A stretch of 64,000 nt of DNA, taken from Escherichia coli O157:H7 (GTDB lineage: Bacteria; Pseudomonadota; Gammaproteobacteria; Enterobacterales; Enterobacteriaceae). The notes beneath the pieces are model-generated. The model searched no databases, was not told where the DNA came from, and saw nothing but the letters and a program-made list of their open reading frames with translations. The DNA is taken from the NCBI RefSeq assembly GCF_013167455.1, contig NZ_CP038328.1. One strand, written 5' to 3'. This document shows positions 21,624-52,614 of this stretch, piece by piece (the stretch's first letter is position 1; each line of letters begins with the position of its first letter). The position numbers and the translations under genes were made by a program.

Positions 21624-22337
21624 TCAGAGCGGGTTCTTTTTGTTGCGAATCAGGTTGAGGCTTTCAACCGCAATAGAGAAGAACATCGCGAAGTAGATGT
21701 AACCTTTCGGTACGTGGATGTCGAAACTTTCCAGAATCAGGGTAAAGCCCACCAGAATCAGGAAAGAGAGCGCCAGCATTTTTACCGAAGGATGGCGCTC
21801 GACAAAATCACCAATCGAGCGCGCGGCGAACATCATCACGCCTACGGCAATCACCACGGCGGCCATCATAATAAACAGGTGATCTGACAGACCCACAGCG
21901 GTAATCACCGAGTCGAGGCTGAAGATAATATCCAGCAGCATAATCTGCACGATAGCGCCGAGGAATGATGAAACGCGTGTTTTCAGCCCTTCTTCTTCAC
22001 CTTCAATGGATTCGTGGATTTCCTTGCTGGCTTTCCAGATAAGGAACAAGCCACCCAGAAGCAGAATCAAGTCACGGGCAGAAATTTCCTGACTGAATAT
22101 TGTAAAAAGCGGATTCGTCAGGCGCGTAACCCAGGCGATTGATGCCAGCAGCGCCAGACGCATAACCATGGCTCCCGCCAACCCCAGACGGCGCGCATGA
22201 GCACGTTGTGCTGTGGGGAGCTTTGCCACCACCAGAGAAAGGAAAATAATATTGTCGATCCCAAGAACGATCTCCAGCAGCGTCAGCGTACCGAGCGCAA
22301 GCCAGGCGTTAGGATCGGTTATCCATGCAAATAACAT
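21624..22337 (-). CDS. ygdQ: TerC-family inner-membrane protein
   Basis: 237-aa polytopic membrane ORF; recognised. Confidence 0.88.
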
Positions 22338-22405
22338 CTAAAAAGCCCTGCCAAAAAAATGAAGCGGTAATTATATGCCCGGAAAGCGGCAGGTCAAAGC
22401 GATGG

Positions 22406-23095
22406 CTACTGGATCAGAAAATGACGGGCCAGTAGTGCACTGGTGAAATTCTTCTTCAAATAAAAGCCGCGCGGCAGCGTCAGAATCCGTTCGCCCCGTG
22501 CACCAATGGCTTCGGTAAGCGCTTTCGCATTCGCTGCTTTCGGTCGTATCTGTAAATACTCCCCGTGACGAGCGGTAATCCGCTCAACCTGACCGAGAAC
22601 AATCATATCCATTAATTCTTCCCAGTCTTCGCGTAGCTGCCGGTCTTCCTCTTCATTCGGGCTCCACAGCAACGGTGATCCAACGCGACGCTGCGCCAGC
22701 GGGATGCTGCGCTCGCCTTCAACCGGTATCCACAGTACGCGTTTGAGTTTGTGGCGCACGTGGCTGGTTTCCCAGGTCACTCCGCTATTGCCCGTTAACG
22801 GGGCAACACAAACGAATGTTGTTTCCAGCGGACGACCAAGACTATCCACAGGGATAGTTTTAAGTTCCACGCCCAGAGCAGCAAAATCTTGTTCAGGTTT
22901 ACTCCCTGCGCTGGCACCTAGCCAGATCTCCAGTAACACGCCAATCCAGCCCTTATCGCGTTTTAAATTCTCTGGCGTAACCAGCCCGGCAAGTGCCGCC
23001 AGTTCTCCCAATGTATAACCAGAAAGTTGCTGTGCTTGCGCTAACAACTGTTCTTCAGTTTCGGGAGGAGAGAGCAGTGGGCGAGGTTGGGACAT
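22406..23095 (-). CDS. mutH: DNA mismatch repair endonuclease MutH
   Basis: 229-aa ORF starting [37 protein letters not shown]. Confidence 0.95.
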
Positions 23096-23279
23096 GTCAT
23101 GATACCTTGGTTAAAAAACAAACAGCAATTATGTGCCGAATATTCGCAGTGTAACTTTTTCCACATGCGTTGTTCAATTATCTGATTTATATTGCTTTTT
23201 AGGTTGCCGGTAATCGAGTTGCGCAACACTGCAACGGGTTTTCCAAATCTGGTCACTGAAAATAAACAGGATCTTACAC

Positions 23280-23640
23280 CATGTTATCCACAGAAAGCTG
23301 GGATAACTGTGAAAAACCTCCACTACTGTTTCCATTTACAGCCTTGACGTGCGACGAAACTCCAGTTTTTAGTGGTTCAGTGCTTAACTTAGTGGCACAT
23401 TCTGTGGATAAATACGGCATTGGTTGATCTTTCGCCAACCCGTAAATGAGAGGTGTGACCTGGGTCACGAATTACTCTTTTTCATTACTTAAATTACATG
23501 TAATGCATTGACTAATAATGAATATTTTAAAATGTCTATATCGGGCTTATTCAGAATGCTCCGGGTTTTCCCGTAGTAATTCCGTAGTTCTTCACAACTC
23601 TATCCACAGAAAAGGTGAATAAAAACGGCTATCCACCCCT
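23280..23640. promoter_or_regulatory. DARS2-like DnaA-box cluster (DnaA-reactivating sequence) in the mutH-rppH intergenic region
   Basis: Perfect DnaA boxes TTATCCACA at 23284-23292 and TGTGGATAA (opposite orientation) at 23403-23411; near-consensus boxes cTATCCACA at 23600-23608 and cTATCCACc at 23629-23637; DARS2 is reported in the mutH-ygdP(rppH) gap. Confidence 0.55.
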
Positions 23641-23779
23641 TCCTCTGTTTATAACTCTGCACATAACTGTGAGTTATTCAATTGTTGTTAGTGTGTAATG
23701 CCCTGCAGAGAGTGGTTTACCGTCTTCCTGGAGTATGAAACAATCATTCGTATATAAAGCTTTATTTTGAGGTAGTCCG

Positions 23780-24310
23780 GTGATTGATGACGATGGCTAC
23801 CGCCCAAACGTAGGTATCGTGATTTGTAATCGCCAGGGGCAGGTAATGTGGGCCCGGCGATTTGGTCAGCACTCCTGGCAATTTCCGCAAGGCGGAATCA
23901 ACCCCGGAGAATCCGCAGAGCAGGCGATGTACCGTGAATTGTTTGAAGAAGTAGGATTAAGCCGCAAAGACGTTCGAATCCTTGCTTCAACGCGTAACTG
24001 GTTGCGCTACAAATTACCGAAACGTTTGGTGCGTTGGGACACGAAGCCGGTTTGTATCGGCCAAAAACAAAAATGGTTTCTCTTGCAGCTGGTGAGCGGC
24101 GATGCAGAAATCAATATGCAAACCAGCAGTACACCAGAGTTTGACGGCTGGCGATGGGTAAGTTACTGGTATCCGGTCAGACAGGTGGTGTCATTTAAAC
24201 GTGATGTCTACCGTAGGGTAATGAAAGAGTTCGCGAGTGTGGTGATGTCACTGCAGGAAAATACGCCAAAACCACAAAACGCATCTGCTTATCGACGTAA
24301 AAGAGGTTAA
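23780..24310 (+). CDS. rppH: RNA pyrophosphohydrolase (Nudix)
   Basis: 176-aa ORF with Nudix box (…[22 protein letters not shown]…). Confidence 0.93.
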
Positions 24311-24322
24311 GTCACGCCAATT

Positions 24323-26569
24323 ATGCTCACTCGCCTGCGCGAAATAGTCGAAAAGGTAGCCAGCGCACCACGCCTGAATGAGGCGTTAAATATTCTGGTT
24401 ACCGACATCTGTCTTGCGATGGATACCGAGGTCTGTTCGGTCTACCTGGCCGATCATGATCGACGTTGTTACTACCTGATGGCGACCCGGGGGCTGAAAA
24501 AACCACGCGGTCGCACTGTAACGCTCGCCTTTGATGAAGGGATCGTCGGCCTGGTTGGCAGGCTGGCGGAACCGATAAACCTTGCAGATGCGCAAAAGCA
24601 CCCCAGCTTCAAATACATCCCCTCCGTAAAAGAAGAACGTTTCCGCGCGTTTTTAGGCGTACCAATTATTCAACGTCGCCAGTTGCTTGGTGTACTGGTG
24701 GTACAGCAACGAGAGTTGCGCCAGTATGACGAAAGTGAAGAATCCTTCCTGGTGACGCTTGCCACCCAGATGGCAGCGATTCTTTCTCAGTCGCAGTTGA
24801 CTGCCTTGTTTGGGCAATATCGCCAGACGCGAATCCGCGCATTACCGGCAGCACCTGGTGTAGCGATTGCCGAAGGCTGGCAGGATGCCACGTTACCTTT
24901 AATGGAACAGGTGTATCAGGCATCAACGCTGGATCCGGCTCTGGAACGCGAACGACTGACCGGGGCGCTGGAAGAAGCGGCAAACGAGTTTCGCCGCTAC
25001 AGCAAACGCTTTGCCGCCGGTGCACAAAAAGAAACGGCGGCTATTTTCGATCTTTACTCGCACCTGCTTTCGGACACCCGGCTGCGTCGCGAATTGTTTG
25101 CCGAGGTTGATAAAGGCTCGGTGGCAGAATGGGCGGTAAAAACGGTCATTGAAAAATTTGCCGAACAGTTTGCCGCGCTAAGCGATAACTATCTCAAAGA
25201 GCGGGCTGGCGATTTACGTGCGCTGGGTCAGCGATTGCTGTTTCATCTTGATGACGCTAATCAAGGGCCGAACGCCTGGCCGGAACGTTTCATTCTGGTG
25301 GCAGATGAACTGTCAGCGACAACTCTTGCTGAGCTGCCCCAGGATCGCTTAGTCGGTGTTGTCGTGCGAGATGGCGCAGCCAACTCCCATGCTGCGATCA
25401 TGGTACGTGCGCTGGGGATCCCTACCGTGATGGGCGCGGATATTCAGCCTTCGGTGCTGCATCGTCGGACGCTGATCGTCGATGGCTATCGCGGTGAATT
25501 GCTGGTCGATCCGGAGCCGGTACTGCTGCAAGAATATCAGCGGCTAATTAGTGAAGAGATTGAGCTTAGCCGTCTGGCGGAAGATGACGTCAATTTACCC
25601 GCGCAGTTAAAAAGCGGTGAGCGTATAAAAGTCATGCTCAATGCTGGTTTAAGCCCGGAACATGAAGAAAAACTGGGCAGCCGTATTGATGGCATCGGTC
25701 TTTATCGCACTGAAATCCCATTCATGCTGCAAAGTGGTTTTCCGTCGGAAGAAGAACAGGTGGCGCAGTATCAGGGGATGCTGCAAATGTTCAATGATAA
25801 ACCCGTCACCTTGCGTACGCTGGATGTCGGAGCAGATAAGCAGCTGCCTTACATGCCGATTAGCGAAGAGAATCCATGCCTGGGTTGGCGTGGGATTCGC
25901 ATTACGCTCGATCAGCCGGAGATCTTCTTGATCCAGGTGCGGGCGATGCTGCGTGCTAATGCCGCTACGGGCAACCTGAATATTCTGTTGCCGATGGTCA
26001 CAAGCCTCGATGAAGTTGACGAAGCACGCCGCCTGATTGAACGTGCCGGACGTGAAGTCGAGGAGATGATCGGTTACGAAATTCCCAAACCACGTATCGG
26101 CATCATGCTGGAAGTGCCGTCAATGGTATTTATGCTGCCGCATCTGGCAAAGCGGGTCGATTTCATCTCTGTTGGCACCAACGATCTGACTCAATACATT
26201 CTGGCCGTTGATCGCAACAATACCCGGGTGGCGAACATTTATGACAGTCTTCATCCTGCAATGTTACGAGCTCTGGCGATGATCGCCCGGGAAGCGGAAA
26301 TACATGGAATCGATCTCCGTTTGTGCGGTGAAATGGCGGGCGATCCCATGTGCGTGGCAATCCTCATTGGGCTTGGGTATCGCCATCTGTCTATGAACGG
26401 ACGTTCTGTAGCGCGGGTAAAATACCTGCTGCGGCGCATTGATTATGCCGAAGCAGAAAATCTTGCGCAGCGTAGTCTGGAAGCGCAACTGGCGACCGAA
26501 GTTCGCCATCAGGTTGCAGCCTTTATGGAGCGTCGCGGCATGGGCGGGCTGATTCGCGGAGGGTTATAG
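24323..26569 (+). CDS. ptsP: phosphoenolpyruvate-protein phosphotransferase, nitrogen PTS (EI-Ntr) with N-terminal GAF domain
   Basis: 748-aa ORF; recognised. Confidence 0.95.
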   Translation: MLTRLREIVEKVASAPRLNEALNILVTDICLAMDTEVCSVYLADHDRRCYYLMATRGLKKPRGRTVTLAFDEGIVGLVGRLAEPINLADAQKHPSFKYIPSVKEERFRAFLGVPIIQRRQLLGVLVVQQRELRQYDESEESFLVTLATQMAAILSQSQLTALFGQYRQTRIRALPAAPGVAIAEGWQDATLPLMEQVYQASTLDPALERERLTGALEEAANEFRRYSKRFAAGAQKETAAIFDLYSHLLSDTRLRRELFAEVDKGSVAEWAVKTVIEKFAEQFAALSDNYLKERAGDLRALGQRLLFHLDDANQGPNAWPERFILVADELSATTLAELPQDRLVGVVVRDGAANSHAAIMVRALGIPTVMGADIQPSVLHRRTLIVDGYRGELLVDPEPVLLQEYQRLISEEIELSRLAEDDVNLPAQLKSGERIKVMLNAGLSPEHEEKLGSRIDGIGLYRTEIPFMLQSGFPSEEEQVAQYQGMLQMFNDKPVTLRTLDVGADKQLPYMPISEENPCLGWRGIRITLDQPEIFLIQVRAMLRANAATGNLNILLPMVTSLDEVDEARRLIERAGREVEEMIGYEIPKPRIGIMLEVPSMVFMLPHLAKRVDFISVGTNDLTQYILAVDRNNTRVANIYDSLHPAMLRALAMIAREAEIHGIDLRLCGEMAGDPMCVAILIGLGYRHLSMNGRSVARVKYLLRRIDYAEAENLAQRSLEAQLATEVRHQVAAFMERRGMGGLIRGGL

Positions 26570-51521: not shown

Positions 51522-52614
51522 GGTTGTATTGCTGTGCCGTCCGGGCTTTGAAAAAGAGTGCGCCGCAGAAATTACCGATAAAGCCGGCCAGCGGGAGATT
51601 TTCGGTTTTGCCCGCGTGAAAGAGAATGCGGGTTATGTCATTTATGAATGTTATCAACCTGATGATGGCGATAAGTTAATCCGTGAGCTGCCGTTCAGTT
51701 CATTAATTTTTGCCCGCCAGTGGTTTGTGGTGGGGGAACTCTTGCAGCATTTGCCGCCAGAAGATCGTATTACCCCCATTGTCGGCATGTTGCAGGGCGT
51801 AGTAGAGAAGGGCGGTGAACTGCGTGTTGAAGTTGCCGATACCAACGAAAGCAAAGAGTTGCTGAAATTCTGCCGTAAATTCACCGTGCCGCTACGCGCT
51901 GCCTTGCGCGATGCCGGGGTGCTGGCGAACTATGAAACGCCGAAGCGTCCGGTTGTGCATGTATTCTTTATTGCACCAGGCTGCTGCTATACCGGTTACT
52001 CATACAGCAACAATAATTCGCCGTTCTATATGGGCATTCCGCGCCTGAAATTTCCGGCAGATGCGCCGAGTCGTTCCACGCTCAAACTGGAAGAGGCATT
52101 TCATGTGTTTATTCCTGCGGATGAGTGGGATGAACGCCTGGCGAACGGGATGTGGGCGGTGGATTTAGGCGCTTGCCCTGGCGGCTGGACCTACCAACTG
52201 GTGAAGCGCAACATGTGGGTTTATTCCGTCGACAACGGCCCGATGGCGCAAAGTCTGATGGATACCGGACAGGTGACGTGGCTGCGGGAAGACGGTTTCA
52301 AATTCCGTCCGACGCGCAGCAATATCTCCTGGATGGTATGCGATATGGTTGAAAAACCGGCGAAAGTTGCGGCATTGATGGCGCAGTGGCTGGTTAATGG
52401 CTGGTGTCGTGAAACCATTTTCAACCTCAAACTGCCGATGAAAAAACGCTACGAAGAAGTGTCACACAATCTGGCGTATATTCAGGCACAGCTTGATGAA
52501 CATGGCATAAATGCTCAGATTCAGGCGCGGCAGTTGTATCACGATCGCGAAGAAGTGACGGTGCACGTCCGCCGTATCTGGGCTGCGGTGGGTGGTCGTC
52601 GCGACGAGCGATAA
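51514..52614 (+). CDS. rlmM: 23S rRNA 2'-O-ribose C2498 methyltransferase
   Basis: 366-aa ORF; recognised (ygdE). Confidence 0.92.

Follow-up and report, generated by a model that had tools for sequence, protein, structure and literature searches.

The DnaA-box cluster between mutH and rppH in an Escherichia coli O157:H7-type genome: very probable identity with DARS2 and a conserved mutH-side half

The mutH-rppH gap

The 684-bp gap at positions 23096-23779 of the window (the whole 64-kb stretch of DNA analysed here) lies between two divergent genes, mutH on the minus strand (22406-23095; 229 aa; b2831 in MG1655) and rppH, also named ygdP, on the plus strand (23780-24310; 176 aa; b2830 in MG1655), the flanking open reading frames agreeing with the placement given in an earlier note on this DNA. 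Its match to E. coli O157:H7 genomes is 100%, and the mutH-rppH gap is found in 5424 of the 5426 complete E. coli genomes. In MG1655 it corresponds to the reverse complement of NC_000913.3 2968978-2969661, with five base differences at positions 23110, 23180, 23490, 23514 and 23687. Its G+C content of 39%, versus 49.9% across the window, bears out its earlier description as AT-rich. RefSeq annotates here only a small ORF, ygdT (48 aa), and leaves DARS2 unmarked. A permissive-threshold Rfam scan of 22300-24500 returned zero RNA families.

Four 9-mers had been proposed as DnaA boxes, and all four stand where the earlier note placed them: a perfect box, TTATCCACA, at 23284-23292 on the plus strand; a second perfect box, TGTGGATAA, at 23403-23411, which reads TTATCCACA on the minus strand and thus has the opposite orientation; and CTATCCACA at 23600-23608 and CTATCCACC at 23629-23637, whose starts are 29 bp apart. 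Apart from the two perfect boxes, the window contains no exact match to TTATCCACA. With the looser pattern TTWTNCACA and at most one mismatch allowed, the gap holds 10 boxes, 4 of them perfect, as compared to a mean of 1.18 for 684-bp windows over the 64 kb and to 2.48 +/- 1.59 in composition-matched Markov simulations, where neither 10 boxes (0/2000) nor 4 perfect matches (0/2000) were ever reached. The box cluster is not a product of chance.

The annotated ygdT frame (23281-23427) spans the stretch from DnaA box VI to box V and the Fis sites FBS2-3, all described below. As a conserved gene it was rejected: of 78 species, 30 have its start codon and 9 a start followed by at least 40 open codons, and no codon periodicity is seen. 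Judged from the sequence, ygdT is probably not a real conserved gene. A scan for promoters and terminators gave one promoter-like and two terminator-like sites, no more than in shuffled sequences and not conserved. A likely rppH promoter can be read at 23711-23747, where a -35 element TTTACC (23716-23721) and a -10 element AACAAT (23739-23744) are separated by a 17-nt spacer ending in an extended-minus-10 TGn motif (TGa, 23736-23738), with the -35 and -10 blocks about 0.9 conserved across species. Further from rppH, at 23645-23682 and just outside the 455-bp fragment introduced below, stands TGTTTATAAC (on the minus strand TTATAAACA, one mismatch from a DnaA box), which is 0.99 conserved and is followed after about 20 bp by CTGTGAGTTATTC (GTTATCCCA in distant species); in E. 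coli the same stretch contains the inverted repeat ATAACTgtgAGTTAT.

Assignment to DARS2 and its published elements

To place the cluster relative to characterized DNA, the primers and oligonucleotides of Kasho 2014 (PMC4245941, Table S1) and Miyoshi 2021 (PMC8682772, Table S2) were mapped onto the window. The primer pair MutH-2/MutH-4 (PMC4245941, Table S1) maps exactly and delimits full-length DARS2, 455 bp, at 23191-23645, its published orientation (core to FBS6) running along the minus strand of the window. The fragment is identical to K-12 at 453 of 455 positions, and this alignment upholds the earlier proposal that the gap is the location of DARS2. The two differences from K-12 fall at 23514, in the 3-bp spacer between IBS1 and IBS2, and at 23490, between FBS1 and the IBS. 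The published mutagenesis oligonucleotides (DeltaCore, Delta21, subDnaAbox IV/V/VI, FBS1, FBS2-5, FBS6 and IBS1-2) all map in the gap with 0-1 mismatch, and the minimal DARS2 (DeltaRight), a construct that keeps 23413 onward (PMC4245941), corresponds to 23413-23645.

The literature likewise puts DARS2 upstream of mutH, and DnaA ChIP-seq in K-12 gave three strong peaks at 2969124, 2969306 and 2969501, equivalent to window positions 23633, 23451 and 23256 (PMC11317965); it is important to note that the paper states NC_000913.2 numbering and that its peak coordinates fit the locus only in NC_000913.3. None of the sequence evidence contradicts the assignment, and we put at roughly 96% the probability that this DnaA-box cluster is DARS2, the non-coding site that turns inactive ADP-DnaA back to ATP-DnaA ahead of every round of initiation and one of the few chromosomal sites setting the timing of replication initiation in E. 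coli. DARS2 at mutH-rppH is already known in E. coli, so that the identification itself is not new, and finding it in an O157:H7-type genome brings nothing biologically new; the label is nevertheless a correct annotation, because RefSeq marks only ygdT there.

The 35-bp core occupies 23588-23622 (minus strand in the published orientation). It is precisely what the published DeltaCore deletion removes, with primer MutH-15 ending at 23587 and MutH-14 starting at 23623, and although the Frimodt-Moller 2015 deletion primers are both given on one strand, their arms enclose these same 35 bp. On the plus strand the core reads TTCTTCACA act CTATCCACA gaaaa GGTGAATAA, a 9+3+9+5+9 layout of box III (+), 3 bp, box II (+), 5 bp and box I (-), in which each box carries one mismatch: box III is TTCTTCACA at 23588-23596, box II is CTATCCACA at 23600-23608, and box I is TTATTCACC on the minus strand at 23614-23622, facing box II. 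Boxes I and II are thus opposed across a 5-bp spacer, the arrangement described for DARS boxes I and II in PMC6868365, with box III oriented as box II and 3 bp away from it.

This layout revises how the four originally noted boxes are to be read. The two perfect ones are regulatory boxes VI (23284-23292) and V (23403-23411) rather than the core, and of the two near-consensus boxes only the one at 23600-23608 belongs to the core, as box II. The other, at 23629-23637 on the plus strand, has two mismatches, falls within primers MutH-4 and MutH-14 but beyond the DeltaCore deletion, bears no published box number and is not conserved (see below). Boxes I, III and IV were absent from the earlier list.

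The same 35-bp I-5-II-3-III layout, with box I facing box II, is found at DARS1 in the bioD-uvrB intergenic region (MG1655 locus L002, 2108-2142), whose core is identical to that of DARS2 at 24 of 35 positions (computed). The two differ in strength, in that DARS1 box II is a perfect consensus and the DARS1 boxes bind DnaA more strongly, whereas the DARS2 core boxes are imperfect; DARS1 needs neither IHF nor Fis, unlike DARS2 (PMC11724364). We also considered that the core might act as a folded single strand and dropped the idea: single-stranded folding gave no structure beyond that of shuffled sequences (z = -0.68), from which we take it that the elements act as duplex binding sites.

The protein-binding sites around the core map equally well. 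IBS1-2, two opposed 13-mers 3 bp apart, lies at 23501-23529 (published IBS oligonucleotide, one mismatch), and the IHF consensus TAANNNNTTGATW, with at most one mismatch, occurs in the gap only at 23501-23513 (+) and 23517-23529 (-). The site sits about midway, with 89 bp to box II and 93 bp to FBS2-3, and a 2025 DARS2 paper describes the IHF site as about equidistant from the core and the Fis site. The essential 21-mer with FBS2-3 is at 23412-23432, flanked by the Delta21 primers MutH-24 and MutH-25 (PMC4245941); next to it, box V, a perfect TTATCCACA on the minus strand at 23403-23411, is flanked by the subDnaAboxV primers. The FBS2-5 oligonucleotide (PMC8682772, Table S2) maps with zero mismatches to 23390-23441, and a perfect box V thus lies inside the FBS2-5 cluster; box V is the reported nucleation site of Fis-displacing ATP-DnaA oligomers (PMC8682772). 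Among the elements reported as expendable, box IV is TTATTCAGA on the plus strand at 23547-23555 (one mismatch; dispensable; primers Ksh-30 and Ksh-31 flank 23547-23556), and the non-essential Fis sites FBS1 and FBS6 are within 23455-23485 (oligonucleotide FIS-1U, zero mismatches) and at 23221-23235 (published 15-mer, zero mismatches). IBS1-2 and FBS2-3 stand at their published positions. As a side observation, GATC (Dam/SeqA) sites occur in the gap only at 23270, in the flank of a distal triad described below, and at 23426, in FBS2-3, both of them conserved across species.

Compared with DARS2 of K-12 MG1655 (Fujimitsu 2009, Kasho 2014, Miyoshi 2021, Kasho 2025), the window locus occupies the same genomic position, and boxes I-VI, IBS1-2, FBS1 and FBS2-6 are identical in sequence and spacing; what sets the window allele apart is two single-base changes (23490 and 23514) and an O157:H7-type host. 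The mechanism, described for the K-12 sequence in PMC4245941, PMC6868365, PMC8682772 and PMC11724364, is here carried over from that near-identical DNA, its biochemistry being inferred from the literature; the present analysis itself establishes the sequence identity, where each element lies, how the boxes are arranged and how deeply they are conserved. With the K-12 sequence, ADP is released from DnaA in a manner that depends on IHF and Fis, and ATP-DnaA rises in vivo (PMC4245941, PMC11724364). By analogy with the published K-12 work, ADP-DnaA would bind the three imperfect core boxes at 23588-23622, where the AAA+ domains of the molecules on boxes I and II would meet head-to-head across the 5 bp (Gln208) and ADP would be released, with box III supplying a head-to-tail DnaA partner (PMC6868365). 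Since the DARS2 core boxes are weak, activity is expected to need IHF at IBS1-2 and Fis at FBS2-3 (PMC4245941): an IHF bend at 23501-23529, its binding stabilised by negative supercoiling, would bring FBS2-3-bound Fis (Gln68) onto the DnaA dimer through the resulting bend or loop (PMC11724364). Apo-DnaA would then depart and rebind ATP, and as ATP-DnaA accumulates it would nucleate at box V, spread over weak neighbours and eject Fis, switching DARS2 off (PMC8682772). The datA locus is likewise a non-coding DnaA-box cluster where timed IHF binding controls the nucleotide state of DnaA (PMC4245941, PMC11724364); there, in contrast, ATP is hydrolysed on head-to-tail ATP-DnaA oligomers, an opposed I/II pair is lacking and Fis is not needed.

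Conservation across Enterobacterales

To follow the locus through related species without bias toward DARS2, one genome per species was scanned with a degenerate pattern for the RppH N terminus, which gave 120 loci. In 80 of these mutH and rppH diverge, nearly all of them with 673-713 bp between the two genes, and the core triad is present in all 80, nearly always 187-206 bp upstream of the rppH start (Dickeya, at 263 bp, and one Serratia, at 375 bp, are the exceptions). These loci cover Enterobacteriaceae, Erwiniaceae, Pectobacteriaceae, Yersiniaceae, Hafniaceae, Budviciaceae and one member of the Vibrionaceae. Morganellaceae differ: in the 1 kb upstream of their rppH genes, Photorhabdus, Xenorhabdus, Providencia, Proteus and Moellerella (loci L004, L007, L011, L037, L055, L060, L063 and others) show no DARS-type triad and no mutH; Photorhabdus luminescens is among the species compared for DARS2 homology in Kasho 2014 (PMC4245941).

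Conservation of each element was expressed as its mean identity in the 50 most distant species, in which the gap overall scores 0.53, and parallels the essentiality reported in PMC4245941. The essential core boxes stand at 0.90-0.93 (box I 0.90, box II 0.93, box III 0.92), FBS2-3, likewise essential, at 0.68-0.75, and box V, with its regulatory role in Fis feedback, at 0.99; low values are found for the dispensable box IV (0.31) and the non-essential FBS1 and FBS6 (0.27). IBS1-2, published as essential, scores 0.52, and box VI, published as dispensable in the plasmid assay, reaches 1.00. The 9-mer at 23629-23637 has a mean identity of 0.28 versus the 0.90-0.93 of the core boxes and is, on this comparison, probably not a functional box. 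Two further perfect TTWTNCACA matches, TTTTCCACA on the plus strand at 23157-23165 and TTTTTCACA on the minus strand at 23308-23316, have conservation of 0.25 and 0.34 and are probably non-functional as well.

Within the core, it is the departures from consensus that are retained. Box III is TTCTNCACA in most species, its position 3 being C; the first base of box II is C or A in all but two loci (T in the Erwinia-type L071 and L120), which makes a perfect consensus rare for this box; and the last base of box I is almost never A. That the mismatches are largely kept as mismatches across Enterobacterales suggests selection for weak DnaA binding. Such conserved imperfect bases fit the finding that putting the stronger DARS1 boxes I-II into DARS2 leads to untimely initiation (PMC11724364, 2025).

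The mutH-side half and competing readings of the locus

The half of the locus nearer mutH, reported to be dispensable, is unexpectedly deeply conserved. Box VI (23284-23292), the first of the boxes in the earlier note, is the centre of a second core-like triad on the plus strand at 23272-23306, consisting of TCTTACACC, atg, TTATCCACA (box VI), gaaag and CTGGGATAA in the same 9+3+9+5+9 register as the core, that is, III'-3-VI-5-I'. By hand count it agrees with the DARS1 core at 25 of 35 positions, next to the computed 24 of 35 between the DARS2 and DARS1 cores, and flanks like these would arise around a perfect box with a chance probability of 0.0009. The triad can be made out in most of the 80 loci, and in some lineages its third element comes nearer to the DnaA consensus (e.g., TTTGGATAA). 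Among the 78 scored loci the triad starts exactly 316 bp (roughly 30 helical turns) from the core in 67, 315 bp in 7 and 317 bp in 2, and the outer flanks are more variable than this spacing (standard deviations 6 and 21 bp). In K-12, the ChIP-seq peak at 2969501, or window position 23256, falls close to the triad (PMC11317965). We did not find this second triad around box VI in the searchable literature, nor a paper discussing "DnaA box VI" in its main text. DeltaCore has been reported inactive even when the right half is left intact, and boxes IV-VI proved dispensable in plasmid assays (PMC4245941), so the mutH-side module is not a second exchange site under those conditions.

Between this triad and box V lies a putative SOS (LexA)-like 20-mer, TACTGTTTCCATTTACAGCC, at 23324-23343, which does not figure among the published DARS2 elements. 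The 64-kb window has no other CTGT-N8-ACAG match; the 20-mer begins a block (23324-23349) with 0.88 identity in distant species and stands exactly 228 bp from the mutH start codon. Scored with an SOS-box matrix that we built, it reaches 11.5 bits and is the second-best 20-mer in the window, but falls below known E. coli operators, the weakest of the boxes behind the matrix scoring 13.1. The best, TACCGGTTACTCATACAGCA at 51990-52009 (13.4 bits), is located within a 366-aa ORF and was set aside as a likely chance match. The invariant TTGACG at 23344-23349 directly follows the SOS-like box; a sigma-70 promoter built on it was considered and rejected, as no conserved -10 follows on either strand. 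LexA of Vibrio parahaemolyticus shifts its own mutH promoter in EMSA. Salmonella mutH, in turn, has been assigned an SOS box at the same distance, 228 bp, with a heterology index of 12.99, which is borderline, together with a 3.58-fold induction by nalidixic acid (PMC8072944). Our literature search found no paper tying LexA to DARS2 and no data on LexA or damage induction for E. coli mutH.

These features bear on whether the boxes might be ordinary promoter operators, through which DnaA regulates just mutH and rppH, as at nrdA or dnaA, and no nucleotide exchange takes place. The cluster does lie between two divergent genes; the box VI triad and the SOS-like box stand 177-248 bp upstream of mutH and are conserved, although reported dispensable for DARS2 activity (PMC4245941); conserved DnaA-box-like sequences stand beside the likely rppH promoter; and Wurihan 2018 describes DARS1 as lying in the uvrB promoter region, with DnaA and LexA regulating transcription. 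As an account of the whole locus this is very improbable, however, given that neither DeltaCore nor IBS/FBS mutants of the same sequence retain ADP release in vitro or the ability to stimulate initiation in vivo (PMC4245941), that opposed boxes I and II with a 5-bp spacer are a DARS signature unusual for operators (PMC6868365), and that very low transcription is reported at the locus (PMC5010248). An operator role may hold additionally for the mutH-side half.

Less probable still, to the point of being hardly credible, is that the locus serves mainly as a DnaA sink like datA, with boxes V and VI titrating the protein rather than reactivating it. The near invariance of the two perfect boxes (0.99-1.00) would suit such a role, as would their top ChIP-seq coverage at the locus (199 and 213 for boxes V and VI vs. 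78 at the core; PMC11317965) and a 2025 study arguing for chromosomal DnaA titration (PMC12371093). Extra copies of DARS2, however, cause over-initiation, contrary to what is expected of a sink, and do so via the core and not boxes IV-VI (PMC4245941), while mutation of box V increases initiation through lost Fis feedback (PMC8682772).

For the mutH-side half the most economical reading is that it most likely provides mutH with a control region to which DnaA and LexA would bind, comparable to that of uvrB at DARS1. We further put forward, tentatively and as a proposal rather less likely to be right than wrong, that it forms a conserved module of its own through which the two proteins would govern mutH jointly. 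Both DARS loci would then sit on such repair-gene promoters, and the reactivation of DnaA after damage could be tuned by how far LexA occupies its box or by the loading of DnaA at the distal triad. DARS1 too is found upstream of a DNA-repair gene with a LexA box (uvrB; L002 2433-2452). The distal triad and SOS-like box together are a modest lead; standing at fixed distances from the core, they connect DNA-damage signalling, the control of mutH and DnaA reactivation in a way that can be tested.

Two observations on spacing may be added. At DARS1 the centre of the uvrB LexA box is 316.5 bp from the centre of core box II (L002 2122-2130), on the box III side, a distance close to the 316.0 bp between boxes II and VI at DARS2; the resemblance may be a coincidence. 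Within DARS2, a direct repeat, TGCAACGGGTTTTCC at 23230-23244 and TGCTCCGGGTTTTCC at 23557-23571, precedes the distal and the true triad by 42 and 31 bp, respectively, and its GGGTTTTCC part is fairly well conserved in both copies among closer relatives and degenerate in distant species.
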